From a virus: a stretch of 64,000 nt of DNA. Below the pieces are notes generated by a model. The model had not been told where the DNA came from. It did not search any database and saw nothing but the letters and a program-made list of their open reading frames with translations. The stretch covers positions 1 through 64,000 of the IMG/VR virus record IMGVR_UViG_3300044912_000492; one strand, 5' to 3'. The position numbers and the translations under genes were made by a program. This document shows, piece by piece, positions 3,314-31,772 of this stretch (position 1 is the first letter of the stretch; each line of letters starts with the position of its first letter).

Positions 3314-3346
3314 GGTCGTTTGCTCCTTTGTTTTCTTTCTGTACTA

Positions 3347-3376
3347 AAGATACCATCACTAAATAAAAGATGGCAA
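3347..3376 (-). promoter_or_regulatory. early promoter, cassette copy 2 (-35 TTGCCA, 18 nt, TGGTATCTT)
   Basis: Same architecture as copies 1 and 3. An 11-bp-arm inverted repeat, GCTATTTGTAA-N7-TTACAAATAGC, sits at 3377..3405 just upstream. Confidence 0.45.
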
Positions 3377-3404
3377 GCTATTTGTAATATTTGTTTACAA
3401 ATAG

Positions 3405-3683
3405 CTACTTATCCTTTGCTTTTGGTTTACACCCATGCACTTCCCTGTATTTATCAGGATGTGCCAAGCGATAGCGTAAGTCATACTCAGCGCGAGTCAT
3501 AGGCTCAGTACCTATAGTTTGACCTCCACGTTTGCGATCGCTAATAGTTACGGTTACGGTTTTTCCATCAGGTGTGAGACAACCACGCCTACAGCGATAT
3601 TGTTTTGCACCTGATGGTTTTGTGCAGTTGAAACTCATTGGTTTGTGACAGTAGGGGCAATCTGGGTTGTTTTCTTGACTCAT
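3405..3683 (-). CDS. zinc-ribbon protein (92 aa), paralogue of 5638..5931
   Basis: DCPYCHKPMSFNCT..SGAKQYRCRRGCLTPDGKTVTVTIS: a four-Cys ribbon shared almost residue for residue with the 5638..5931 product. Reminiscent of IS-type transposase N-terminal Zn ribbons. Confidence 0.6.
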   Translation of the reverse strand: MSQENNPDCPYCHKPMSFNCTKPSGAKQYRCRRGCLTPDGKTVTVTISDRKRGGQTIGTEPMTRAEYDLRYRLAHPDKYREVHGCKPKAKDK

Positions 3684-3952
3684 AACGATTCCGCAAACGC
3701 CTTGATAGCGCTCTCATTGTTTTTAATAAATTGCTTTAATAATTTGATTTCATTAAAAAGAGAACTCAAATGCTTGCTAGTCGCGACATTAACAGGATAA
3801 GACGGCATCCATACACATTCAAACCAGCATACAGAGCCATCAATCATCCCTAGTCCAACATTAGCGACAAACTTGTCGCCTTCTTTGTAAGCGCTTTGGA
3901 TTGCGACCTTTGCGCTTGGATTATTGCCGATCATCGCTTCATTTTTACGCAT
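3680..3952 (-). CDS. hypothetical protein (90 aa)
   Basis: ORF with 4-nt overlap to the upstream gene. Confidence 0.5.
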   Translation of the reverse strand: MRKNEAMIGNNPSAKVAIQSAYKEGDKFVANVGLGMIDGSVCWFECVWMPSYPVNVATSKHLSSLFNEIKLLKQFIKNNESAIKAFAESL

Positions 3953-4175
3953 GGCTTAGCAACTCCTTCAACTCGCTTACTGTTTCCAATGCGTACCAAA
4001 CACCGCCGCTAGACTGCCATGAGTATTCGTAGCCCTCATCAGCCATGCGTACTGAGAGAATGTCTTCATCCCATAAATAAAAAATGTACTCTTCGCCGAT
4101 CTTGCCATCAATATTGTCAGGATGTAGCTCGGCATAGCGTTGTAGGAACGCTTGGATCATGAATAGTGTTGCCAT
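3945..4175 (-). CDS. hypothetical protein (76 aa)
   Basis: ORF preceded by cassette B copy 2 SD. Confidence 0.5.
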   Translation of the reverse strand: MATLFMIQAFLQRYAELHPDNIDGKIGEEYIFYLWDEDILSVRMADEGYEYSWQSSGGVWYALETVSELKELLSHA

Positions 4176-5567: not shown

Positions 5568-5637
5568 TGGAAACTGAGTGACGCGCCATTCAATTAAGCT
5601 ATGTTGCTGTTGTCTGCGTCCTGTGAGCGAACAAGAC

Positions 5638-5931
5638 TTAGGAAACTTTTAACTCTTTACGTTTAGCTTTGCGCCGATCCTGTTTGCGCTTCATAGCAGC
5701 GCGATAACCTTCTGGATCGTTCTCCTTCCACCGTGCAGTTAACTCCTTCTGGCTTTTAGCATTACCAGATTTAGGGCGATGTGCAGGGCGATTGCTGATA
5801 GTCTTTGTTACCGTTTTACCTTCAGATGTAAGGCAACCACGGCGGCAACGGTACACTTCAGCGCCGCTAATTTGCGTGCCATTAAAACTCATTGGTCTGT
5901 GACAATAGGGACAGTCAGGACGATGAGGCAT
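5638..5931 (-). CDS. zinc-ribbon protein (97 aa), paralogue of 3405..3683
   Basis: PDCPYCHRPMSFNGTQISGAEVYRCRRGCLTSEGKTVTKTIS plus a basic C-terminal tail. Confidence 0.6.
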   Translation of the reverse strand: MPHRPDCPYCHRPMSFNGTQISGAEVYRCRRGCLTSEGKTVTKTISNRPAHRPKSGNAKSQKELTARWKENDPEGYRAAMKRKQDRRKAKRKELKVS

Positions 5932-6866: not shown

Positions 6867-7229
6867 TTACCTAAAGGTATTCTCCAAGTTTTTTGCAAAC
6901 CTCTCTGAAACTCTAGCCAGATTTTCATTAAACTCAGCGCGGTTTAATTCAATTTTGGGCTTGCAGTATCCATTATCAAAATGTTCACAAGCTTGACATA
7001 CTTTTTTGGGGACATTGAAGGTATTAGGTTTTGAGCTTTCAGGATATATGCCAGAAAAATTTTTAATCCGACATACCGTAGAAGCGCCCTTAATCAATAC
7101 CTTTAAGCCATCTTTGCTAATGATAGGCTCACCAGATCCAAGAGTAAGGACAGGCTTTTTATTGCCTAATTTGAAAACCCATATGTTTCGCATCCATCGG
7201 ATTCTGCCAAAATCAAAAATGTCATTCAT
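6867..7229 (-). CDS. hypothetical protein (120 aa)
   Basis: ORF in chain; contains a CQACEHFDNGYC cysteine cluster. Confidence 0.5.
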   Translation of the reverse strand: MNDIFDFGRIRWMRNIWVFKLGNKKPVLTLGSGEPIISKDGLKVLIKGASTVCRIKNFSGIYPESSKPNTFNVPKKVCQACEHFDNGYCKPKIELNRAEFNENLARVSERFAKNLENTFR

Positions 7230-7232
7230 AAT

Positions 7233-7547
7233 CTAAAACTCGCAATCATCAAAAGGTACATAGTCATCAAAATAATCGTCATCATATTTCGGGCGGCGCA
7301 AATCTTTAATCTTTGCTTTTAGGATTGCGACTACTGAGTAAAACCAAATCTGTAAACGTTGCCAGAAATCAGGGGTAATGCTTACGCAATCATTAGCGTC
7401 AACATATTCGCCAAGTTCATCCAAAAATAAAAGCGTTTTACCATAGCCCCATGAGCTATCAGCGCCATAGAGTTCAGCTTCTGTTGTGCATTCAGAGCAG
7501 TGGTATACATTGCCTTGATATAGGTAATAGTCGTTAGTGTTATTCAT
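7233..7547 (-). CDS. hypothetical protein (104 aa)
   Basis: Start set at ATG 7547 (MNNTNDYY), overlapping the upstream stop by 8 nt. Contains CSEC and an acidic C-terminus. Confidence 0.5.
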   Translation of the reverse strand: MNNTNDYYLYQGNVYHCSECTTEAELYGADSSWGYGKTLLFLDELGEYVDANDCVSITPDFWQRLQIWFYSVVAILKAKIKDLRRPKYDDDYFDDYVPFDDCEF

Positions 7548-7752
7548 GGGTTCTTGTTTGGTTTTGATTACGGTACAGTGTGATCGCATCACGCATAGTT
7601 TTAGCTTTTGTCCCTTCAGGGAGTGATTTGTACCACTCCTCTGTTTCTTTGGTTACGCCCAAAACCACTTTGATAAATACAAGTGAATCGGGTTTAGTTG
7701 TGCCTTTAGGTCTGCCAGCAGATGATCGAGTTTTTGATGTTTGTTTAGTCAT
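7540..7752 (-). CDS. small DNA-binding protein, GRP-motif family (70 aa)
   Basis: SAGRPKGTTKP N-terminal arm followed by LPEGTKAKTMRDAITLY. Same architecture as the 17563..17760 and 46963..47151 products. Confidence 0.5.
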   Translation of the reverse strand: MTKQTSKTRSSAGRPKGTTKPDSLVFIKVVLGVTKETEEWYKSLPEGTKAKTMRDAITLYRNQNQTRTHE

Positions 7753-7804
7753 TAGTTATATTCCTTGGTTTATAGAAAGGGATTTTCTATCCCCTCTATT
7801 TTTG

Positions 7805-8173
7805 TTAGCGACACAAACGAGCATAAGAGCCTTGCCATTTGTTAAGCCAATCACCAGCTTCGCCAGATGTATTAGCACCATCAGCCCAAATTTTAAATAC
7901 TAGCTTCAAGATTTGAAATCCAGTCAATGAATGAATTTCTTTCTCAATCTCAACACTAGCTCTACCCGTTTGGATATACCAGTGAATACCGTACCAAATT
8001 GCATCAAACGCGATCGCTTGCTGTTGTGAGTAAATCCCGTCTTCTTGCATAGAACGGATGTTAGAAGTAAACAACGTATCAATTACGTTTCTTTTTACTC
8101 TCGTAGTGTAATTGCAAAAAAAAAGAAATTCTTGAGCGTATTCAGCGACTACAGAAAATTTAGTGGTAGACAT
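7805..8173 (-). CDS. hypothetical protein (122 aa)
   Basis: ORF downstream of a sigma70-like promoter. Confidence 0.5.
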   Translation of the reverse strand: MSTTKFSVVAEYAQEFLFFCNYTTRVKRNVIDTLFTSNIRSMQEDGIYSQQQAIAFDAIWYGIHWYIQTGRASVEIEKEIHSLTGFQILKLVFKIWADGANTSGEAGDWLNKWQGSYARLCR

Positions 8174-21716: not shown

Positions 21717-22007
21717 ATGGCAGCTAAAAAAGATCCGCGCCTTGCTAAAGCTGGAGTTGATGGCTATAACAAACCAAAGCGCACTCCTAAGCATCCTACT
21801 AAGTCTCATGTAGTTGTCGCTAAAGAAGGTACAGAAGTGAAATTAATTCGTTTTGGTGAACAAAGTGCAGAGACAGCAGGGAAACCCAAAGAAGGTGAAT
21901 CTGAAGCGATGAAAGCTAAACGAGAAGCATTTAAAGCGCGTCATGCCAAGAATATCGCTAAAGGTAAGATGAGTGCAGCTTGGTGGTCTTCGGTTACGAA
22001 ATGGTGA
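21717..22007 (+). CDS. conserved basic hypothetical protein (96 aa)
   Basis: GYNKPKRTPKHPTKSHVVVAKEG...ARHAKNIAKGKMSAAWW; followed by a strong terminator. Confidence 0.55.
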   Translation: MAAKKDPRLAKAGVDGYNKPKRTPKHPTKSHVVVAKEGTEVKLIRFGEQSAETAGKPKEGESEAMKAKREAFKARHAKNIAKGKMSAAWWSSVTKW

Positions 22008-22052: not shown

Positions 22053-22171
22053 GATTCTGGTAATGCACTGAAAGCTATATGTATTAACAGATTGAGGCGA
22101 AAAAGTGGTAAAATATTAGAAGCGAATCGCAAGGTTTGAAGGTGCGATCGCTGAATCCACATTACCTAAAC

Positions 22172-23065
22172 ATGGTAGATAACATGGCTAAAGATATTAT
22201 TACATTAGATCGTAACGGAGTTCAGGTTGAGATCGAAGGGATCAAGGTTGACTTACCTATCAAAGCTATAAGGGATCTCCCTTTGGCTGGGGATGTCTAT
22301 TTGATTAAATGCTGTCAGTTTTACAAAATTGGCGCGTCTGCACAGATTAAAAAGAGGATCGCCGCTATCCAGTCTATCGTCCCGTTTGATGTTCAGATCA
22401 TTGATTCTTTTCTTTCGTGTGATGTTTTCCAAGACGAGAAAAAGATACATCGTTTATGTTCTGAGTTTAATGTCAAAAATGAGTGGTTTCTTTTGCCAGA
22501 TTCTTTTGTTAAAAATAGGGCAAGATGGTTTAAACCGTCTGTATCTCCAATCCCACAAATCAAACAAGGGATCGCCAAATATATGAAAGCGGTTGACGAT
22601 GAAAGCGGCGTTTTCTCAGAGCTAACAGGAAGTTTAATTTATAGACCTAAGCCCGACAAAGAACTCATGAGAAATTGTTTTTTACTAAACACTGAGATTA
22701 GTACTCAGATTATTGCGGCTCATTTCAATGTTGATGTAGCCGAAGTCCATAACAATCGCTATCGTGGCTTGTATCGCAAAAACGCAACTCAACTCAGAGA
22801 AGAAGCAGGGCTTAAAAAGTCTGAGACTCCTCTGGATCGCCTATCTGCTTATGACTTGAATTTAAACAGCTTGGCTAACCAAATGGCTTTGATGTCTGGT
22901 GATTCTGGTAAGGTGTTAGATGCGGCGATCGGGTTGCGTCAATTGCATGAGCAAACTGTCGGCAAACCATTAGAGCCAACATGGGAAGAAAAGCATTTAA
23001 GACCTAATCAAGCTAAAGCGATCGCCTATTCCCCTGAATACCAAACTGAGCTACCAGTAAGCTAA
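22172..23065 (+). CDS. T5orf172 (GIY-YIG-like) domain protein (297 aa)
   Basis: DVYLIKCCQFYKIGASAQIKKRIAAIQ...EKKIHRLCSEFNVKNEWFLLP matches the T5orf172/MUG113 pattern. First ATG is at 22172 (the track start 22136 is non-ATG). Confidence 0.6.
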   Translation: MVDNMAKDIITLDRNGVQVEIEGIKVDLPIKAIRDLPLAGDVYLIKCCQFYKIGASAQIKKRIAAIQSIVPFDVQIIDSFLSCDVFQDEKKIHRLCSEFNVKNEWFLLPDSFVKNRARWFKPSVSPIPQIKQGIAKYMKAVDDESGVFSELTGSLIYRPKPDKELMRNCFLLNTEISTQIIAAHFNVDVAEVHNNRYRGLYRKNATQLREEAGLKKSETPLDRLSAYDLNLNSLANQMALMSGDSGKVLDAAIGLRQLHEQTVGKPLEPTWEEKHLRPNQAKAIAYSPEYQTELPVS

Positions 23066-23141
23066 AATCATTCGCGCTCTGTGATAGCGATATCACAGAG
23101 CGCGATAATGCTAGAATCGCTGTAAATTCGTATGTTGATTT

Positions 23142-23789
23142 ATGCCAAAGAAAAAAGCTAAGCTCTCAGATTTTCGTATTCAAGAAAAAAATCTCAATAA
23201 ACACAAACCCCGTGGTATGGGACAGCTATCCAATATCATCTCAAAGGAAGGATGGCAGTCTGCAATCACTGTCGCGAACGACAATCAAGCATTTAGCGGT
23301 AGTGCAAGATTAGAGACAGCACAAGAGCTATTTGGTGATGAAGCAGAGCCTATCGTATTTGATATTGATGGTACACGCCCCGTAATCCTTAGACGGGTTG
23401 ATATTCCCACTGCTGACGATCCAAGGGCTATCAGATTAGGCATTGCAGATAATCGCATTAGTGAGGTTAACTACGATTTAGATATTGATCTACTACAAGA
23501 GACAGCGCAAATAATCGACATCAGCGATCTATATTTTGACGATGAACTTGCAAAATTAGCAGAGCAAAAGCAGGAAATCATCGACTATCAAGAGCCTGAT
23601 TTTCTCAAGTTTTCAGATAACAATGACTTACCAGCATACGCAACCGATCGCAGTGGTGGCAATAAGCAACCTATACCCATAGTCGTTGGTAGTCGCACTA
23701 TGCAAAGATGGAATGAATATAAGGAAAGTATTGGGATAAAAAATGATACGGCGGCGTTTGAAATGCTGCTAGAATCTCAAGAGATCTAA
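23142..23789 (+). CDS. ParB N-terminal (ParBc) nuclease-like domain protein (215 aa)
   Basis: NLNKHKPRGMGQLSNIISKEGWQSAITV...FSGSARLETAQEL...LGIADN pattern. Confidence 0.55.
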   Translation: MPKKKAKLSDFRIQEKNLNKHKPRGMGQLSNIISKEGWQSAITVANDNQAFSGSARLETAQELFGDEAEPIVFDIDGTRPVILRRVDIPTADDPRAIRLGIADNRISEVNYDLDIDLLQETAQIIDISDLYFDDELAKLAEQKQEIIDYQEPDFLKFSDNNDLPAYATDRSGGNKQPIPIVVGSRTMQRWNEYKESIGIKNDTAAFEMLLESQEI

Positions 23790-23799
23790 GGTGATTATT

Positions 23800-24225
23800 A
23801 TGCTGCGATCGCTAGACAACAGTAATGGTATTCAATATTACGGTGGGAATGATCCCGCAAAGATGAGTGGTAGATTCAAGAAGGGAGGATCAACGGGGGG
23901 GGGATCTAACTCGGTAGGCAAATCAAAAACGAGTAATTTTGTTTTAGGATTAAAAAAACAGGTTTCTGATACTGCTAAATATATTGGAAGTCGTACTAAT
24001 AAGCCTGAATTAATTAGAATGGCAGTTCAAAATACTAAGAATAATTTGATTGACAAAGCGACAACTGATATTAAGCGCGGAAATCAAAGATTGACTACAA
24101 AGACTAAGATTGATTCTAATATTCGCAGACAAAAACGCGCCATGACTTCAGGTGATATTTCTCGTAATGCTAGTATTCAATCCGCTAGACTTGAGACGCA
24201 AGGTCAACTCAATCTTTTGAGATAA
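23800..24225 (+). CDS. basic protein P1 with conserved N-terminal module (141 aa)
   Basis: Start set by homology at ATG 23800. MLRSLDNSNGIQYYGGNDPAKMSGRFKKGG, then a Gly/Ser linker and a K/R/N/T-rich tail. Paralogue of 25451..25861. Confidence 0.6.
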   Translation: MLRSLDNSNGIQYYGGNDPAKMSGRFKKGGSTGGGSNSVGKSKTSNFVLGLKKQVSDTAKYIGSRTNKPELIRMAVQNTKNNLIDKATTDIKRGNQRLTTKTKIDSNIRRQKRAMTSGDISRNASIQSARLETQGQLNLLR

Positions 24226-24228
24226 AAC

Positions 24229-25473
24229 ATGGACGGATTAAAGCCTCTCTACGGTGGTTTACTCAAGATACCCGCGCCATTAGAACTTAGTGGTAATTGG
24301 TGTTCAACTAATTGTCCCTATTGCTTCGCGAATCTTAACGCCCCTACTCGTACACTTGACGTTAACGGTGTTTCAAGACTATTAGCTGACTATCAAAACA
24401 GAAATACCATCGAGGGGTATTTACTACGTGATGGCTATCCTGTAATTGTCAGCAATCATATTGATCCGTTTAGCGCCTCAAACTATCGTCAGATGATTCC
24501 TTTTATGGAAACCATGACAGAGCTTGGTATACCTTACTCTGTGCAAACCAAGGGTGGAAAAGGATGGGAAAAGGTACTTGAGTTTATGCCGATCGGTGTT
24601 TGGTATGTGTCGATATCATTCTCCGATGATGAGACACGCAAATCTATAGAGCCTAGCGCACCGCCTTTAGAGCATCGCTATGAGTTGCTAGAAGCATTGA
24701 TATCAAAAGGGCATACGGTAATTGTCGGATGCAACCCATGTGAACCAGATTGGCTGTTAGACCCTATTCCGTTCTTTGACAATCTAAAAGAGATTGGCGT
24801 ATTTGGTACATGGATGGAAAATCTGCACATTAATACCAAGCAAAAAAAAGTAATGTCAGATCGCGATCGCAAGTTGTTAGGCGAAGACTTAATCAGTGAT
24901 TGCCTCAAGAAGAAACATAGCGATCCTTACAGGAAAGAATTTGTCGAGATGTGTAGGGAATACTCGCGATCAATAGGGTTAGAGAATTACAGCATTGCTA
25001 ATGGTAGGTATTCAAACTTTTTTGATGCTTACAAGATGTATCCGAAATTATTCCCAGTAGTTCAGCAATTTATTAATCGGTGCGCTACGTTAAATCGTGA
25101 GTTTTTCACACAACGAGAATGGGTAGAGTTTTTTACCCCGTTACTACCTACATTCGTAACATCGCAAAATTATCACTATATTGATAGCAATGTCAGAATG
25201 TGTCCTGAAAAGGCGCTAGGCTTTAAAGTACCAAAGAATCCAACGTTTGAGACAATCTTGAAATGCTCTTTGAAGTCTCATAATGTACCGTTTCATCCAG
25301 TTAACAAAGCTGCTTTCAGTTATGCTGTAGATAGTAATGGTAATTATTTATTAGACGATGTAGATAAATTGCCTATACTATGTTATGGCGCGGATGGGTG
25401 GACTCATACTATGATTGAGTATGATGACAATGAGATTAATGAGGTCGATTATGTTGGAATCATTAGACAATAG
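24229..25473 (+). CDS. radical SAM enzyme (414 aa)
   Basis: CSTNCPYC (CX3CX2C) at aa 25-32 in the GNWCSTNCPYCFAN context, similar to SplB/COG1533-type radical SAM proteins. Confidence 0.75.
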   Translation: MDGLKPLYGGLLKIPAPLELSGNWCSTNCPYCFANLNAPTRTLDVNGVSRLLADYQNRNTIEGYLLRDGYPVIVSNHIDPFSASNYRQMIPFMETMTELGIPYSVQTKGGKGWEKVLEFMPIGVWYVSISFSDDETRKSIEPSAPPLEHRYELLEALISKGHTVIVGCNPCEPDWLLDPIPFFDNLKEIGVFGTWMENLHINTKQKKVMSDRDRKLLGEDLISDCLKKKHSDPYRKEFVEMCREYSRSIGLENYSIANGRYSNFFDAYKMYPKLFPVVQQFINRCATLNREFFTQREWVEFFTPLLPTFVTSQNYHYIDSNVRMCPEKALGFKVPKNPTFETILKCSLKSHNVPFHPVNKAAFSYAVDSNGNYLLDDVDKLPILCYGADGWTHTMIEYDDNEINEVDYVGIIRQ

Positions 25474-25861
25474 CGACGGTGTTCAGTATTACGGTGGTAA
25501 CGATCCATCTAAGATGAGTGGTAGATTCAAGAAGGGCGGAGGCGGTGGAGGCTCTAGTGGTAGTGCTAAACGTAGCGCTGTAGGACAGCGTAGTAGTGTT
25601 GAGTCTAAGTTTGGTGCATTAGCAGGTAATATTGCTAAAAATCAAGCTATTCTTAAAAATCCCAGTTCAACGCCAGAACAACGGGCGATCGCGACACGCA
25701 AAATTATGGCTAACACAAGGACTGCGACGGGATCTATACAAAGAAATGTTGGAAGCGAGCAAATAACCTCTCGTTTTGGATTGCAATCTAGGGCGCAACA
25801 AGCGAGATCGGCGGCGCAAGCACCTTCTGTTTACGGTAATTCTCTTGGAATAATAAAATAA
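25451..25861 (+). CDS. basic protein P2 with conserved N-terminal module (136 aa)
   Basis: ATG 25451 behind a GAGG SD, overlapping the radical SAM stop. MLESLDNSDGVQYYGGNDPSKMSGRFKKGGGGGG, then a divergent basic tail. Confidence 0.6.
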   Translation: MLESLDNSDGVQYYGGNDPSKMSGRFKKGGGGGGSSGSAKRSAVGQRSSVESKFGALAGNIAKNQAILKNPSSTPEQRAIATRKIMANTRTATGSIQRNVGSEQITSRFGLQSRAQQARSAAQAPSVYGNSLGIIK

Positions 25862-25927
25862 AATAAGTAAGTTATATAGGGGCATCCCTATATAACTTAC
25901 TAGGAATAAAGTAGACTACTTGACATT

Positions 25928-26545
25928 ATGGCAGCACCAACAAAACATGATTGGGCAAAAATTAGCAAGGAATACATAGAAGCGCCTAGTGATGATTTGC
26001 GACCTTCATTAGTTGCTTTAGCATTAAAATATGGTGTAAGCATTAAATACATTGAACAGAAATGTTCAAAAGAAAAATGGGTGGAGCAATCCAAGATCTT
26101 TCTAAGGCGCGTCTCTCAAGAGTCAAAGCAAGAGAAAGTGTCAAGCCTAGCGGGTGAACAAACTAAGTTTGATGCTGATATTCTGACTGTTGCGAGAGCA
26201 TTGCAAGGGCAAATCATAGGTCATCTTAATGAAGCTAAGCAATCAAAAACGCTATTACCTCCAAAGGATATAAGCCTGTTATCGGGTTCGTTATCCACTA
26301 TTCAACGCATTGGACGGACAGCATTAGATTTTGATTCATGGACACCTGACAAAATCGTAAATGAGGCATTAAAACTTGGCTACCTTCTCACCGATCCTCG
26401 AACTCTTACCAGCGACACAGGCTCGGATGGAAAGAGCTTGGGAAAAGGTAGAGACTCAGATAGCACAGAAGCAAACCCGTTCGCAGACATACTCGCAACA
26501 ACAGAAGATACAACTACACCCGCTACAGCAAACGATCGCGAATAG
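25928..26545 (+). CDS. terS: terminase small subunit (205 aa)
   Basis: N-terminal HTH-like SLVALALKYGVSIKYIEQKCSKEKW; immediately upstream of TerL. Confidence 0.6.
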   Translation: MAAPTKHDWAKISKEYIEAPSDDLRPSLVALALKYGVSIKYIEQKCSKEKWVEQSKIFLRRVSQESKQEKVSSLAGEQTKFDADILTVARALQGQIIGHLNEAKQSKTLLPPKDISLLSGSLSTIQRIGRTALDFDSWTPDKIVNEALKLGYLLTDPRTLTSDTGSDGKSLGKGRDSDSTEANPFADILATTEDTTTPATANDRE

Positions 26546-27827
26546 CCAAGCTAAGTACACGATTGCAGTGTCAGGACGGCGCTTTGGTAAAACTGTATTG
26601 CAAATATACAAAGCCCTAGAACGTGTTGCGATTGGTGCGCCATATAATCCCGTTTCGCCGCCTGTGGTAGTGTTGGCTGCCCCTACCTTGGTTATGGCTC
26701 GTAGATTACTATGGAAGCAATTACAGAACATTCTACGCAATCACAAAGCAGTCGAGAATGTCAGCAAATCTGAGTTTACAATCACCTTTAAGAATCCTGA
26801 TCCGTATAAGTTCTATATGCCTGATTTAATGATCATGGGTTTGAATGATGGTGATGGTGATCGCGCCCGTGGTTTGCGTCTATGGCATTTTGGCGGTGAT
26901 GAGTGGCAAGACTGGAAAGCAAGTATTTTCCCAGAAATTATTCAGCCAGCATTGTCTGATACGCAAGGGAGTACAGCGCTATTCACCTATACACCCAAAG
27001 GCAAAAGCAATCATACCTATGATGCTTACGAAAATGCACTTGTAGCCGATCCGATGGTATGGCAAGCGTTTAAATATAAGAGTGTGGATAATCCGCACCT
27101 TAAGCCAGAAGATATTGAGTTGCTTAGGCAGAGCTTGTCTCCAAGGCTATTCCGTCAAGAGATGGAAGCATCATTTGAAATGTTTGAGGGACAATTCTTT
27201 GAGACGTTAAGCGCTAGGCATATCATCAGCGACCGCGATTTACCTAGTGAGTTTGCGTATCGTATCTTATCGGTTGATTGGGGCGCGGTTAATCCAAGAG
27301 CCTTAGTGGTTTGCGCCTTTATCAAAGATGGCTTTTATCATTGGTTTGTAGTTGATGAGTGGCGCGTACCTAGGACGATGCAAGGTCAGGCAATATTAGA
27401 AGATGACTTTATTTACGAATGCCATAAGTTAGCGATGAAGTGGCAAGTTAACAGAGCCTTTGGTGATCCCTCTAGACCTGATGCAATCAAATCATTACGG
27501 GTGTGGAAACCCAAAGAGGGGCAAATATTCAAGGAAACATTCAAAAATTACTGCTCAGAAGTTAGGGGCGCGGTCAATGATTTTATTAAGGGCATTGACT
27601 TAATGAGCAGTGACTTCTATCACGAACGGATCAAGATCGTAGACACATTGCCTCAATTCTTTGAAGAGTGCCAATCGTATCACCGCAAAAAAGATAAGTA
27701 TGGCAACATCACAGAAGAAGAAGCAGGTAATCAAGTGACGCATGGTATCGACTGCCTACGCTATGCGATCGCGTCAATGCCGCCCGTTAATCGTCAATCA
27801 AGCTTTGGTAGTAGTAGAGCTATGTAG
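26376..27827 (+). CDS. terL: terminase large subunit (483 aa; start 26376 or 26427)
   Basis: Walker A-like VSGRRFGKT and Walker B-like HFGGDEWQD. There is no Met after aa 18, so at least 119 nt of overlap with terS is unavoidable. Confidence 0.75.
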   Translation: MATFSPILELLPATQARMERAWEKVETQIAQKQTRSQTYSQQQKIQLHPLQQTIANSQAKYTIAVSGRRFGKTVLQIYKALERVAIGAPYNPVSPPVVVLAAPTLVMARRLLWKQLQNILRNHKAVENVSKSEFTITFKNPDPYKFYMPDLMIMGLNDGDGDRARGLRLWHFGGDEWQDWKASIFPEIIQPALSDTQGSTALFTYTPKGKSNHTYDAYENALVADPMVWQAFKYKSVDNPHLKPEDIELLRQSLSPRLFRQEMEASFEMFEGQFFETLSARHIISDRDLPSEFAYRILSVDWGAVNPRALVVCAFIKDGFYHWFVVDEWRVPRTMQGQAILEDDFIYECHKLAMKWQVNRAFGDPSRPDAIKSLRVWKPKEGQIFKETFKNYCSEVRGAVNDFIKGIDLMSSDFYHERIKIVDTLPQFFEECQSYHRKKDKYGNITEEEAGNQVTHGIDCLRYAIASMPPVNRQSSFGSSRAM

Positions 27828-27880: not shown

Positions 27881-28633
27881 TTAGCTAAGTCCTAACCCTT
27901 TCTTCACTAAATCCATCGGATCGGCTGTGCGATTGAAATCACTGGTTTGACGCTTACCACTGCCATTAGGGATATTGTCGCCACTAGCGCGATTAAGTGG
28001 CTTTGCTGCTGATGGTTTCTTAGCTGCAATCTCGTTAGCCCAATCCTCAATCGTAAAGGGTACAGTCTTTTTATCCACAACCTTAAAGCGCTGGGTGCGA
28101 TCCTTGACGGATTCAACCACAATCACCTCATACTCACCATCTTCATTTTCGATCGCTTCTAGTTGCTTAGCATATGCAGGGTTATTGGTTAAATCATCAA
28201 GAAATTCAGATCTAAAAACTTGAGCAAAAGCGGCTTTAATTTCTTTTTTAATGAATTGCTGCTTAACCTTTGCATCTTTCTCTTCTAGCCTTTGCAGTGC
28301 CTCTTCTTCGCGCTTCTTGGCTGCTGCTTTTTCGGCTGCTGTTTCGGTCAAAAGTTGCTCTTTGAGCTTTGCAAAATCACCTGTCCGTTTTGCTCTCTCT
28401 TCTTCATCTAAGCGCTCTTTTTCCTTGAGTTGCTCATCCTTTTGTTTAACCAATGCTTGAGCGGCGTTCAATTCATCGCGCAATTTTTTAAGAGTGCGCT
28501 TTACCGTGTCATCTTCTTCTGGTTTTGCGGGTGCTTTTACCTCATCTGTAGCACTTCCACTGCTAACGCCATCGGTAGAGTCAGCGCCGCTTTCTTCATT
28601 CTGGTAGAAATAGTTTCTAAATTTAAATCGCAT
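27881..28633 (-). CDS. scaffolding protein (250 aa)
   Basis: Long K/E/A-rich coiled-coil region (EKERLDEEERAKR...AAEKAAAKKREEEALQRLEEK); position between the portal and capsid modules. Confidence 0.6.
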   Translation of the reverse strand: MRFKFRNYFYQNEESGADSTDGVSSGSATDEVKAPAKPEEDDTVKRTLKKLRDELNAAQALVKQKDEQLKEKERLDEEERAKRTGDFAKLKEQLLTETAAEKAAAKKREEEALQRLEEKDAKVKQQFIKKEIKAAFAQVFRSEFLDDLTNNPAYAKQLEAIENEDGEYEVIVVESVKDRTQRFKVVDKKTVPFTIEDWANEIAAKKPSAAKPLNRASGDNIPNGSGKRQTSDFNRTADPMDLVKKGLGLS

Positions 28634-28635
28634 AT

Positions 28636-29004
28636 TTAAGCTCTAGTGTGTTTTCCTGATAGACTCGCACAATTCTGTAGTTGCAAATTGTCGATAAGCC
28701 ATTGCCGATCGCCATTGTATAAAGTCATTGTAGCTCTTAGATCAGAGCCGCTTTGCTTAGTAATACTGTAAAACGATGGGACAGATTGACTGGTTACTCC
28801 AAGGCTACCATCGGTCATCTGAGTATCGATAGTAGTTTTGTATGCGTCTAATCCGTCAAGCTTTGATTGTACCTCAGTTATAGCACTCACTCCATAGGTG
28901 TCTTCATAGGTTGTGAGGGTGCTTTCAATCAATGCGTAGTAATCGCGTGTGAGATTGAGGTACTTAACAATGCGATCGCGATCGTTGGTTGTCCATGTAC
29001 TCAT
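28636..29004 (-). CDS. hypothetical head-module protein (122 aa)
   Basis: Sits between the portal and scaffold genes, overlapping the portal stop. Confidence 0.5.
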   Translation of the reverse strand: MSTWTTNDRDRIVKYLNLTRDYYALIESTLTTYEDTYGVSAITEVQSKLDGLDAYKTTIDTQMTDGSLGVTSQSVPSFYSITKQSGSDLRATMTLYNGDRQWLIDNLQLQNCASLSGKHTRA

Positions 29005-30650
29005 GATTCCGCCTCCGTTTCATTTTCTTCATCTTCATCTTCGCTATCGTCTTCTTCTTCGTCGTCAATCTCAGTCTCTACCGATTGGCTTTGATTAGCA
29101 TTAGCAACCATCTCAACAGGCGGCGCGATCGCCACAATTTTCTGATCTTTGGGTAAGAAATTAATTCTATGCAAAATCTCAGTAGCTGCTTCTTCGGTTA
29201 ATCCTTTATTGATTACCTCAAAGATAGTGCGAATCAAGTTCACATCAGCAGGGGCAAGAATAAAGCTCAAATCTACGTCAATTGTACCGTGATCAGCCCT
29301 TACGTCTTCACCTTCCCACATTGCCCAATGGCAAAAGACTTGCTGAGAGCATGATTCTTTATTGACTTCATACTCTTGCAATCCTGCTTCATTTTGCCCT
29401 GCCTTGATGCTCACCTCAGTAGCAGATTGTTGGACAAATGATTCACCCAAAAAGTTGAAAACAGTTTGTTTAATCAGTGATTCTAATCGGTCTAGAGCCT
29501 CAATCATAGGCGCGACACTATTAGCATCAGCTTGCAAATAGTAAACCTTAGCGGCTCCGATCTGGGTTAGCACTGTCTCAATAACAGCAGCACCGCCTGT
29601 TGACAAAGGATTAAGCTTTTCTGGAATAAAGTCAATGTGTTCACGAACAGCAGTCGGTTGCATCTTGCGAACTGTTGCAAGCCAATCGCTAAATACTTGG
29701 TAATAAGTATGATTCTTTTGCTGTAAATCAAGTAAAGGCGGTATCGTATCCCAAGGGTTAGCACTGGTTACTGAGTACAGCACAAAAGGGATTTGACTTA
29801 GTGGCTTACCATTGGTATCTAACAATGGCTTAGGTGCTTCTACCTCTCGATATTCTTTTTCGCCTTTGTCGTTGGTTTCAATGCAAGTTACCGATCGCAT
29901 CACAGCATAATAAATACGATCCTCCTCTTGTACTTTGATTAGCTCGTATTCCCAGCAATAGTTTTTCATTGACTGCTTATAACGAGTTTCGCTAATCACC
30001 TCACTCCGATCAATGGTGACGTGCTTGAGTAGTACCGATCCGTCATTGGTGTATTCGTAATCCTTAATATCAATATCAAGCCTAGGGATTAGCACCGAAT
30101 AGGGGCGCAAATCTAATTGCTGTTCAACCGCACGATTAGGAATTTCGCCAAAATTAGGATAGAGGGTAAGCACTCCCACAAAGCCATCACGTACAGCCAT
30201 GCGATCGGCTTCAAGAAAGAATGCTCTTATTGATGTACCGCGCTTATCAAAATTTTTAGAGGCATTGACAACTGATTCGGGTACATTGCCACTAAGCACC
30301 CATTTACTTAGCAGACTAGATACAATTTTGACGGCTGGCTTAAAAAAGTTAACAAATAGCGATCGCCTTAATCTGAAATACCACTCTTTTGGTGTTTCGC
30401 TTGGCATGAGTGGTAAATACTCCTCAGCCAAATTATCGATAATCTGATCAAGGTTCTCGCCATAAATCCAAGCGCTTTGCCCCTCATAGAAGTCAATACA
30501 ACGCCTTACATTAGCTTGCTGCCTTTGGTACGCAATGCTCTTTAATGTTGGATTGTTATCATCGCCAAGTATGTTACCGCCTCGATAGCCTTTAGCGATC
30601 GCCTCTGGTAATTGATTTGGCTGTAGCGTGATTAAAGTTTCTGTTGTCAT
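29001..30650 (-). CDS. portal protein (549 aa)
   Basis: Positional call: large ORF heading the portal-scaffold operon, divergent from the capsid gene. Highly acidic C-terminal tail EIDDEEEDDSEDEDEENETEAES. Confidence 0.6.
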   Translation of the reverse strand: MTTETLITLQPNQLPEAIAKGYRGGNILGDDNNPTLKSIAYQRQQANVRRCIDFYEGQSAWIYGENLDQIIDNLAEEYLPLMPSETPKEWYFRLRRSLFVNFFKPAVKIVSSLLSKWVLSGNVPESVVNASKNFDKRGTSIRAFFLEADRMAVRDGFVGVLTLYPNFGEIPNRAVEQQLDLRPYSVLIPRLDIDIKDYEYTNDGSVLLKHVTIDRSEVISETRYKQSMKNYCWEYELIKVQEEDRIYYAVMRSVTCIETNDKGEKEYREVEAPKPLLDTNGKPLSQIPFVLYSVTSANPWDTIPPLLDLQQKNHTYYQVFSDWLATVRKMQPTAVREHIDFIPEKLNPLSTGGAAVIETVLTQIGAAKVYYLQADANSVAPMIEALDRLESLIKQTVFNFLGESFVQQSATEVSIKAGQNEAGLQEYEVNKESCSQQVFCHWAMWEGEDVRADHGTIDVDLSFILAPADVNLIRTIFEVINKGLTEEAATEILHRINFLPKDQKIVAIAPPVEMVANANQSQSVETEIDDEEEDDSEDEDEENETEAES

Positions 30651-30818: not shown

Positions 30819-31772
30819 ATGGCAGCTTTAACACTATTAGAAATGGCGAAGCAAGCCCGTGAGATGGGAGACATCTTAAAGGCTGGCATTGTTGAACAAT
30901 ATGCGGGTAATTCTCCGATCCTTGACGTAATTACGTTTGAAGAGCGTGCAGGTGGTGTTGTTGAGTGGCTACAAGAGAAGCGACTTCCTGTAATGGCTAA
31001 CCGTGCGATCAATGAAGGCTTCACAGCAGATATCGGTGAAGTTGAGCGACGGATCGAGAAAGTCGTTATCGCTGGTGGTGAAATTAAGATCGATACGGCT
31101 GGCTTAAAGCTGTATGGCGAAAACGTCCTAACCACTCAAATCTCTATGGCGCTTAAGTCTTTACAACTTAAATGGCATGGTGATTTCTTTAACGGCGATC
31201 ATGCTGCTAACCCTAAAGAATTTTCAGGACTTAAAACCCGCGCTGGTGGTACTCAGCTAGTACAAGCTGGTAGCGCTTCGGGTGGTGATGCATTGTCTCT
31301 CAGTGCATTGCGTCGAGCGATCGCTAAAGTACGCCCTGTAAATCCACGCGCTCAACTACGCATTTACTCTAATCTTGAGCTAGCTTTGCGCTACCAAGAT
31401 GCAATCAGCAACCCTTCGATTTCTGGTTACGTTGTGCAAACCAAGAATGATGTAGGCGTAGAAGCTCCTACCTTCAAAGGTATCCCTTGGTACGCAATTG
31501 AAGAAGATGCAGAGGGCGATCAAATCCTTGGCTTTACCGAAACTGGAAGCGGCGGCGGATCGGCGGTTTGCTCTTCGATCTACGTTGTTGCGTTCAGCCC
31601 TGAAGATCTTACAGGTATCCAAACAGGCGGTATCGATGTTCGCGACATGGGTGAGATGCAAACTGAAACTAAGCGCTTGATCCGTATGGATTGGTTGAAC
31701 AATTTCGCAACCTATAACCCTCGCTCCTTTGTTCGCCTTGCTGGTGTAAAGGACGCTGCTTTTACTGCTTAA
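30819..31772 (+). CDS. major capsid protein, probably HK97-fold (317 aa)
   Basis: Positional and compositional call: first gene of the rightward structural operon, typical length, no enzymatic motifs. Confidence 0.65.
   Translation: MAALTLLEMAKQAREMGDILKAGIVEQYAGNSPILDVITFEERAGGVVEWLQEKRLPVMANRAINEGFTADIGEVERRIEKVVIAGGEIKIDTAGLKLYGENVLTTQISMALKSLQLKWHGDFFNGDHAANPKEFSGLKTRAGGTQLVQAGSASGGDALSLSALRRAIAKVRPVNPRAQLRIYSNLELALRYQDAISNPSISGYVVQTKNDVGVEAPTFKGIPWYAIEEDAEGDQILGFTETGSGGGSAVCSSIYVVAFSPEDLTGIQTGGIDVRDMGEMQTETKRLIRMDWLNNFATYNPRSFVRLAGVKDAAFTA

Follow-up and report, generated by a model that had tools for sequence, protein, structure and literature searches.

T-even phages carry a diverse set of internal proteins whose only common feature is a capsid targeting sequence (CTS) (PMC3012670), and both T4 Alt and DdrB of phage P1 are packaged and injected (PMC5512222). 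We analysed a window, the whole of a 64,000-nt stretch of viral DNA (positions 1 to 64,000 of IMG/VR record IMGVR_UViG_3300044912_000492), in which the gene for a radical S-adenosylmethionine (rSAM) enzyme lies between two genes, here named P1 and P2, for basic proteins that share an N-terminal peptide (the tag). The trio is located between a ParB-like gene and the terminase genes and belongs to a conserved module consisting of a ParB-like gene in most cases, the rSAM gene and one to seven tagged genes for exchangeable, mostly basic proteins, positioned beside the packaging genes.

The module resembles the T4 internal proteins IPI-III and Alt in that a short N-terminal peptide is common to otherwise unrelated proteins (PMC3012670), in that its genes form clusters whose content is hypervariable from one close relative to the next, and in that its putative cargo combines basic proteins with an ADP-ribosyltransferase (PMC5512222). 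Unlike in T4, the tag is tied to an rSAM gene and usually to a ParB-like gene, which T4 lacks; the tag does not resemble the T4 CTS in sequence, neither a prohead protease nor a cleavage consensus was recognised here, and the window encodes a separate scaffolding protein. Packaged polyvalent and MuF-fused effectors and the Dar proteins of phage P1 also comprise ADP-ribosyltransferases, ParB-like proteins and nucleotide-directed enzymes encoded near head and packaging genes (PMC5512222), but these are MuF-fused domains or processed polyproteins, whereas the proteins described here are separate, short-tagged polypeptides. ParB-domain DNA methyltransferases encoded beside phage terminases likewise join a ParB-like domain and a SAM-using enzyme immediately before the terminase, although the SAM enzyme is here a radical SAM protein and a separate polypeptide.

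Among rSAM enzymes, the maturases of ribosomally synthesised and post-translationally modified peptides (RiPPs), such as SuiB/StrB (streptide), DarE (darobactin) and PoyD, are comparable in that the rSAM gene adjoins one or more genes with a conserved N-terminal peptide, and 26-45-aa versions of the tagged proteins also occur in this module. Trp/Tyr, Lys, Gly and Phe are the kinds of residues that RiPP rSAM maturases cross-link, and the tag is rich in them. In contrast to RiPP precursors, the conserved part here is ~13-30 residues, the "core" can be an enzyme of up to 750 aa, and the genes are situated in a phage late region. A second comparison is with the activases of glycyl radical enzymes (GREs). 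Pyruvate formate-lyase activating enzyme (PFL-AE) is a single-cluster rSAM enzyme that acts on a protein glycine loop. Like PFL-AE and NrdG, which both act on protein, the enzyme of the module is single-cluster with a CX3CX2C motif near its N-terminus, and in the tag small residues flank a conserved Gly, with an aromatic residue after it. It differs in having an extra 215-residue C-terminal domain; the spacing of the tag motif differs from RVxG[YF], and 14 residues are too few for the tag to protect a stable glycyl radical. No activase sequence model in Pfam or NCBIfam was matched and no GRE gene lies near the rSAM gene of the window. Finally, spore photoproduct (SP) lyase, SplB, and its small acid-soluble spore protein (SASP) partners (COG1533) share with the module an rSAM core fold, a COG1533 label assigned by JGI and basic partner proteins, but no SplB signature and no similarity to SASPs was found, and toxin-type cargo occurs in relatives. 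The components resemble known kinds (CTS-tagged internal proteins, leader-guided rSAM maturases) and their combination appears undescribed; literature searches returned neither a ParB-like/rSAM/terminase module nor tagged phage proteins linked to an rSAM enzyme.

Organisation of the block in the window

The rSAM gene (24229-25473, + strand, 414 aa) encodes the [4Fe-4S]/SAM cluster motif CSTNCPYC at residues 25-32 (24301-24324; C25, C29, C32). P1 (23800-24225, +, 141 aa) occupies a variable cargo slot in the interval between the ParB-like and rSAM genes, and P2 (25451-25861, +, 136 aa) follows, its first 23 nt lying within the rSAM gene. The tag of P1, MLRSLDNSNGIQYYGGNDPAKMSGRFKKGG (23800-23889, +), is identical to that of P2, MLESLDNSDGVQYYGGNDPSKMSGRFKKGG (25451-25540, +), at 24 of 28 positions; a BLASTP comparison of the two proteins confined all significant similarity to this N-terminal segment (E 7e-17) and found nothing significant beyond it. 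The tails are unrelated and basic, with a net charge of +15 in P1 and +12 in P2. An initial annotation, made from the letters of the window alone, had described the rSAM open reading frame (ORF) with its cysteine motif, the corrected starts of its neighbours, their shared N-terminus and basic tails, the overlap and the position in the genome, and all of these were confirmed at their coordinates.

Both starts are preceded by a Shine-Dalgarno sequence: ATG 23800 by AAGGTG at 23788-23793, six nucleotides upstream, and ATG 25451 by GAGGT at 25441-25445, five nucleotides upstream. P2 is a real gene with a tail under purifying selection in L004-L007, as seen against the L004 orthologue, in which 93 of 102 tail residues are identical and the codon differences comprise 23 synonymous and 9 non-synonymous changes. 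The possibility that P1 and P2 are chance ORFs was rejected on these two grounds. Of the first 35 codons, 16 are identical between P1 and P2, 12 differ synonymously and 7 non-synonymously; the shared peptide has therefore been kept by selection. A recent duplication of the P1/P2 module was rejected on the synonymous divergence together with the cross-phylum conservation described below, and no third copy was found in the window.

A run of nine G residues (23895-23903, +), read from the sequence, lies in the part of P1 that codes for the Gly linker. Several database relatives of the tag are only 29-46 aa long and stop just after the tag; slippage or phase variation at this homopolymer, sequencing frameshifts or genuine mini-proteins are possible origins of these short forms.

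Distribution of the tag

When ORFs around rSAM genes were compared with each other, repeated N-termini with unrelated tails were detected in many lineages. Three neighbours of the rSAM gene in an Oculatella prophage (L003) start with MASKGGSWKSG(K/T)F and a fourth copy occurs elsewhere on the contig; four tagged genes were found in L012 (MAASGGHWK[SG]GxF), three in L025 (MAS[SA]GGHW...FVP), seven on the 33-kb contig L027 (MAAAGGSWKGGSF) and two in L030/L083. Further variants were MASSAVRSKVGRKFGG in L010 and MAGQDWRKNKKGF in L013, L053 and L078, with one copy on the opposite strand. Single tagged peptides of 26-45 aa directly follow the rSAM stop codon in L095/L161, L104 (Chitinophagaceae), L113 (Methylococcaceae) and L065. 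The architecture recurs around homologous rSAM genes of only 30-40% identity.

Altogether 49 N-termini matched the tag expression, of which 47 were taken as true tags and two were the N-termini of capsid proteins. The consensus is M-A-[AS]-[SA]-G-G-[SH]-W-K-[GS]-G-x-F, followed by small or Gly residues. The window tag, ML.SLDNS.G.QYYGGNDP.KM[SG]GRFKKGG, is a divergent variant that retains the GG ... K-x-[SG]-G-[RK]-F core; it has invariant positions across 10 relatives, was found only in close relatives of the window phage and formed 14 small clusters in a large protein collection. Grouping the rSAM proteins at 55% identity gave 51 clusters, at least 11 of which have tags, spread over at least four deep branches with one to seven tagged genes each. 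Homologous tags in many lineages exclude a purely local duplication, which the initial annotation had named as an outcome that would speak against its proposals. Conservation of the tag at the DNA or RNA level was rejected, the peptide being kept across GC contents from 0.29 to 0.67.

In L013, two tagged genes flank the rSAM gene on opposite strands (5586-5867, -, and 7208-7975, +). The longer of the tagged genes gives a sub-threshold match to ParB_N. There is no untagged ParB-like gene upstream, and it may be that in this locus the ParB-like partner bears the tag.

Association of the tag with the rSAM gene

The association was also examined from the tag alone, by scanning with the back-translated pattern M-A-x-x-G-G-x-W-K-x-G-x-F. 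In IMG/VR, an rSAM gene adjoins the tag in all four matching contigs. A metagenome collection yielded 43 matching stretches, 18 of which carry a strict tag as defined without reference to rSAM (positions 3-4 small, position 7 H/S/A/V/T/I, ORF of at least 25 aa). The rSAM gene was present on the same fragment in 10 of these 18; of the eight without it, one comes from elsewhere on an rSAM-bearing contig, six extend for less than 700 nt on the side where the gene would be expected, and L126 is an apparent exception. The 25 non-strict matches served as a control, and none had an rSAM gene nearby. An earlier pattern, MAxxGGHWK, had returned the L012 contig and chance-level matches, one of which led to the capsid proteins described below. 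The association is asymmetric: the tag implies rSAM, and rSAM does not imply the tag.

Coupling between the genes is often close. The downstream tagged gene starts 0-23 nt from the rSAM stop codon in the window, L003, L012, L025, L027 and L030. The terminase and portal genes of tagged loci are unrelated to those of the window or undetectable, and because the tagged loci do not share one structural module the tag follows the rSAM gene and not one capsid type. The general form of an idea in the initial annotation, that P1 and P2 are substrates of the rSAM enzyme, gains from the finding that the tag occurs essentially only beside rSAM genes; its specific form, a classical RiPP system, is unlikely, as set out below.

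Domains of the tagged proteins

Searching 37 tagged proteins against Pfam identified an ADP-ribosyltransferase (exoenzyme/ART) domain in three independent lineages (L003, 217 aa; L025, 607 aa; L083, 751 aa), a NUDIX domain in one protein (L083, 508 aa) and a sub-threshold ParB_N match in one (L013, 255 aa). The remaining proteins are small and had no Pfam match. The part that follows the tag ranges from 12 to about 735 residues, enzymes included, and its net charge is zero or above in 36 of the 37 proteins, most of them being clearly positive. This domain repertoire is that of known packaged and injected effectors (T4 Alt, phage P1 DdrB).

The slot between the ParB-like and rSAM genes is hypervariable. 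In phages with an rSAM protein 89-97% identical to that of the window it holds genes with four unrelated tail types or is empty, and P2 is conserved. The combination of tag, Gly linker and unrelated cargo recurs in many phage lineages with a variable slot and with ADP-ribosyltransferase, NUDIX and basic cargo, and the second idea of the initial annotation, that of packaged or injected proteins with a shared targeting sequence as in T4, gives the best comparative fit.

The rSAM enzyme family

The Pfam Radical_SAM model (PF04055) scored 28 bits on the window protein, just below its cut-off of 29.5, and is present in most homologues in precomputed annotation. The motif CX3CX2C is invariant in an alignment of 30 sequences that reaches down to 25% identity, which excludes a non-conserved cysteine motif, the other outcome named beforehand as adverse. 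The only conserved cysteines in this alignment are C25, C29 and C32, and because no further Cys is conserved the enzyme is without a SPASM-type auxiliary cluster; a SPASM/twitch domain was likewise not matched in Pfam. With CX3CX2C in a partial TIM-barrel core, the protein belongs to the radical SAM superfamily.

An AlphaFold2 model of the protein (pLDDT, the predicted local distance difference test, 90.8) superposes on many rSAM cores. Residues 1 to ~200 form the rSAM core and residues ~198-414 a family-specific domain. In Foldseek, the best match was PFL-AE (3c8f/3cb8, E 7e-7, including the peptide-bound structure 3cb8), and the top matches, PFL-AE, SP lyase (template modelling (TM) score 0.42-0.51) and viperin, were equally good and covered the generic core only. 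The C-terminal domain (198-414), modelled alone, reached a pLDDT of 85.5; these ~215 residues had no fold match in the PDB (best E 1.2), and no DNA- or peptide-binding fold was recognised in them. Being confidently modelled and unmatched, this domain could be the part that binds the tag.

Named relatives are few. In NCBIfam, the only matches, both weak, were to the Rv2578c family (23 bits against a cut-off of 430) and to the putative DNA modification/repair rSAM family TIGR03916. Sequence searches of the PDB with a single query or a family profile found no meaningful rSAM relative, and a fold search of BFVD gave nothing beyond generic viral rSAM proteins and an unnamed entry of 469 aa. A collection of 5.8 billion proteins contained 124 clusters of ~400-aa homologues, some labelled by JGI as COG1533 "DNA repair photolyase", and an exhaustive profile search gave 352 rSAM clusters (50% identity) at E ≤ 1e-30. 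Every homologue stems from a metagenomic viral contig or a prophage, and many phyla are represented. Among the prophage hosts are cyanobacteria (Oculatella, Drouetiella), Chitinophagaceae, Blastocatellia, Chloroflexia, Methylococcaceae, Nitrosomonadales, Nitrospiraceae, Synergistetes and Saccharibacteria, and also Bacteroidales and Dehalococcoidia. Three divergent queries found no member of the family among GenBank phages (50,697 records), and nucleotide and protein searches for the region and for P1 were also without a match there.

Two homologues, P0198 (708 aa) and P0173 (759 aa), carry an insert of 340-370 residues before profile position 31, just after the Fe-S motif. They were checked as possible ParB-rSAM fusions: the insert of P0198 matches LAGLIDADG homing endonucleases, and on this match we read it as a putative intein, and that of P0173 has no Pfam match. 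Inteins are usually located in the active sites of important proteins.

The ParB-like gene

The gene upstream of P1 (23142-23789, +, 215 aa) encodes a protein of the ParB/Srx fold that matches the PHROG ParB-like families 498 and 620 (E 1e-12 and 6e-11), placing it among proteins with a ParB N-terminal domain. Pfam gave no match for the window protein and a weak ParB_N match for its L003 orthologue. Through PHROG 498, the window protein is paired with the ParB domain of ParB-methyltransferase fusions.

The neighbourhood sample comprised 80 loci from IMG/VR and 23 from genomes. Of the 75 loci with an intact rSAM ORF, 58 have a ParB-like gene upstream in the same orientation; 8 of the remaining 17 have less than 700 nt of upstream sequence available. 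Its stop codon overlaps the rSAM start by 4 or 8 nt in ~30 loci. The ParB-like gene is therefore the most constant neighbour of rSAM, a partnership that the initial annotation had missed. Gaps of 250-760 nt between the two genes contain a small tagged gene in the window, L001, L003, L006, L007, L010 and L023, and the terminase genes, of differing types, are usually downstream of rSAM. L025 and L031 have rSAM and tagged genes with no adjacent ParB-like gene.

Two paralogous ParB-like genes (31-82% identity) precede rSAM in L001, L004, L016, L024, L050, L058, L060 and L063, and in L004 a 214-aa gene of unknown family lies between the two paralogues.

Capsid proteins that share the start of the tag

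A family of major capsid proteins (MCPs) has the N-terminus M-A-[SD]-S-G-G-H-W-x-[TN]-L-A-E-A-Q-K-L-T-Q-S, invariant in 56 of 56 members (L086:2808-3884 and L162-L225, all IMG/VR). Its first eight residues (MA[SD]SGGHW) equal the first eight of the common tag (MA[AS]SGGHW). The family belongs to PHROG 212, as does the capsid protein of the window (30819-31772), and when the capsid proteins of the window and of Oculatella are aligned with the family, the alignment starts at its position 9, the eight residues being absent. The phages of this MCP family had no rSAM gene within 10 kb and no other tagged ORF. The pattern scan that led to the family forced seven of the eight residues, and ~2-3 chance matches are expected from it; a chance match would, however, rarely fall on the exact and invariant N-terminus of a capsid protein. 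If this lead is real, the tag would be a capsid-protein N-terminal peptide supplied in trans, which would favour a role in capsid assembly.

Proposed role of the tagged proteins and the enzyme

The explanation that best accommodates these results is that P1, P2 and their counterparts form a class of proteins built from a short shared N-terminal address peptide, a flexible Gly-rich linker and an exchangeable, mostly basic cargo. The rSAM enzyme would recognise the address peptide and would most likely modify, by radical chemistry, one of its conserved Gly, Trp/Tyr, Lys or Phe residues. The tagged proteins would then enter the capsid and reach the next host together with the DNA; there they might act early, as DNA-associated basic proteins in the window phage and as ADP-ribosyltransferases or a NUDIX hydrolase in its relatives. 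We assign a probability of roughly 40% to this combined model, in which the tagged proteins are virion-delivered cargo and the rSAM enzyme recognises, and probably modifies, their tag.

Its parts draw on different evidence. That the tagged proteins are delivered cargo is plausible by analogy in their architecture, their hypervariability, the repertoire of their cargo and the position of their genes. An action of the enzyme on the tag we infer from their near-exclusive and coupled association across phyla and structural backgrounds, together with the intact catalytic motif. The enzyme also looks catalytic and compatible with a protein substrate, judging from the invariant CX3CX2C and, in the predicted structure, from fold matches that include the peptide-bound PFL-AE.

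Several observations weigh against this model. About three quarters of rSAM lineages have no recognisable tag within 6-10 kb, including a 17-locus proteobacterial cluster without any tag, and since most lineages are tagless the enzyme must have a function that is independent of tagged neighbours. In the other direction, the fragment L126 bears a tag but no rSAM gene, although ~1.3 kb are available on either side, and the MCP family shows that the motif can function without the enzyme. The constant ParB-like partner suggests DNA as the target, and the only named sequence neighbours of the enzyme are DNA-directed or of unknown function (the COG1533 "DNA repair photolyase" label of JGI; Rv2578c at 23 bits). 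The fold match to PFL-AE is no better than that to SP lyase or viperin and concerns the generic core only. No prohead protease was recognised among the window head genes examined (scaffold, portal, MCP), and the GenBank phage collection contains no isolate, and no annotated or experimentally studied relative, for any member of the rSAM family.

A more detailed version of the model, which we put forward only tentatively, would have the enzyme and its ParB-like partner modify the 13-30-residue tag as a commitment step for capsid loading and co-injection. The modification could be a radical cross-link, a glycyl or C-alpha radical that couples the tag to the capsid, to DNA or to a partner protein, or a cleavage. 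The eight residues identical to the capsid protein would then mean that the cargo imitates the N-terminal arm of that protein. Should the enzyme modify the tag as a loading step, this could be categorically new, there being no described precedent in phage assembly.

An rSAM-dependent address would constitute a new route of cargo selection in tailed phages, distinct from the protease-dependent T4 CTS and from MuF fusions, in a system that spans cyanobacteria, Bacteroidota, Proteobacteria, Chloroflexota and other phyla. Dozens of small basic proteins and several ADP-ribosyltransferase and NUDIX enzymes would be flagged as candidate injected effectors or anti-defence factors, and a family of ~350 clusters annotated only as "radical SAM" or "DNA repair photolyase" would gain a role. 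If the 13-residue tag alone suffices for encapsidation, it could serve as a tool for filling capsids with foreign proteins.

Alternative explanations

The alternative that survives best is that two independent functions share one late-gene island. The tag would be a pure capsid or scaffold address that binds protein to protein, like the T4 CTS or the cargo-loading peptides of encapsulins, with the tagged genes located there since accessory and ejection genes accumulate in such places, and the ParB-like and rSAM proteins would modify or repair DNA around packaging. This division is possible, if rather doubtful. It accounts for the conservation of the ParB-like/rSAM pair as the core (present in 58 of 75 loci, the two genes often overlapping by 4 nt), for the persistence of rSAM without tags in most lineages, for the COG1533 label and the weak Rv2578c and TIGR03916 matches, for the pairing of the ParB-like protein with methyltransferase fusions, and for an invariant capsid-family N-terminus equal to the first eight tag residues in phages that have no rSAM. 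It does not readily explain why the tag is found essentially only beside rSAM, on both sides of the gene and often coupled to it, with unrelated packaging modules and from GC 0.29 to 0.67, nor why L025 and L031 have rSAM and tagged genes but no ParB-like gene next to them; the motif is also missing from the window and Oculatella capsid proteins, and the C-terminal domain of the enzyme has no recognised DNA-binding fold. If the enzyme nevertheless acts on DNA, the ParB-like and rSAM genes beside the terminase would represent an undescribed phage module for DNA modification or repair.

It is improbable that the rSAM or ParB-like protein is itself virion-internal, with the tag docking on it non-covalently so that the cargo travels along and the catalysis of rSAM serves a purpose after injection. 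The very tight association of tag and rSAM, the large unmatched C-terminal domain as a possible docking platform and the weak ParB_N match in a tagged protein of L013 would suit such an arrangement. The rSAM protein is, however, itself untagged and showed no sign of being packaged, and oxygen-labile Fe-S enzymes seem unlikely virion passengers in the phages of oxygenic hosts.

A literal RiPP pathway, in which P1 and P2 consist of leader and core and are modified, cleaved and released as bioactive peptides, is highly unlikely: the 26-45-aa tagged peptides directly after rSAM in L095, L104, L113 and L065 speak for it, and adjacency of the genes is typical of RiPP clusters, but the variable part reaches 751 aa, with folded ADP-ribosyltransferase and NUDIX enzymes among its forms, the rSAM protein lacks a SPASM/twitch domain and auxiliary clusters and conserves only the cysteines C25, C29 and C32, no RiPP recognition element, protease or exporter gene was found nearby, and the genes lie between ParB-like and terminase genes.

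We give just as little credence to the remaining proposal of the initial annotation, that P1 and P2 coat the packaged DNA like SASPs and the enzyme repairs ultraviolet damage after injection as an analogue of SP lyase: the tails are indeed basic, SP lyase is among the top fold matches and the host is cyanobacterial, but SP lyase scores no better than PFL-AE or viperin, no SplB model in NCBIfam was matched and the family profile found no rSAM protein in the PDB, neither P1 nor P2 had a Pfam, NCBIfam or PHROG match of the SASP kind and their tails are not SASP-like, no fourth Cys that could serve as H-donor and no Cys/Tyr donor is conserved beyond the cluster motif, relatives carry toxin-type cargo, and prophages of Synergistetes, Bacteroidales, Dehalococcoidia and Nitrospiraceae make a sunlight rationale look unlikely, judging from these taxa.

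Flanking genes, host and genome ends

Downstream of P2, the terminase small subunit gene (TerS; 25928-26545, +) gave a weak match to PHROG 51 and has a conserved position in L001 and L004-L007. It is followed by the large subunit gene (TerL; 26376-27827, +; PHROG 2, E 1e-31; Pfam Terminase_6N), whose true start is probably downstream of the listed TTG, and by the head genes for the scaffold (27881-28633), the portal (29001-30650) and the MCP. Upstream of the ParB-like gene are a gene for a 309-aa protein with a T5orf172/MUG113 (GIY-YIG-like) domain (22136-23065) and one for a 96-aa protein (21717-22007) that matches PHROG 7595, of unknown function, over its full length (E 6e-40).

A scan for terminator-like structures found two hairpins that enclose the ParB-like/P1/rSAM/P2 block exactly. 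The left one (23072-23105, 15-bp stem) is directly 5' of the ParB-like gene, and the right one (25866-25901, perfect 16-bp stem; RNA fold -24.1 kcal/mol, z = -5.6) lies in the interval between P2 and TerS. They could be cassette boundaries, opposite-strand terminators or RNA processing sites.

The window contains 83 copies of the HIP1 octamer GCGATCGC against 0.7 expected, a cyanobacterial host signature, and is therefore from a cyanophage or a cyanobacterial prophage. One copy (23805-23812) is situated within the tag coding sequence of P1 and is absent from that of P2.

A relative of the window phage with 63% identity (L001) encodes a Tet/JBP-family dioxygenase (3330-4148) ~2 kb upstream of its ParB-like/rSAM block, a hint that phages of this group may modify their DNA bases. 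Many viral contigs end 0.1-4 kb from the rSAM gene, which would fit a genome terminus or a packaging start close to the ParB-like/rSAM/terminase region.

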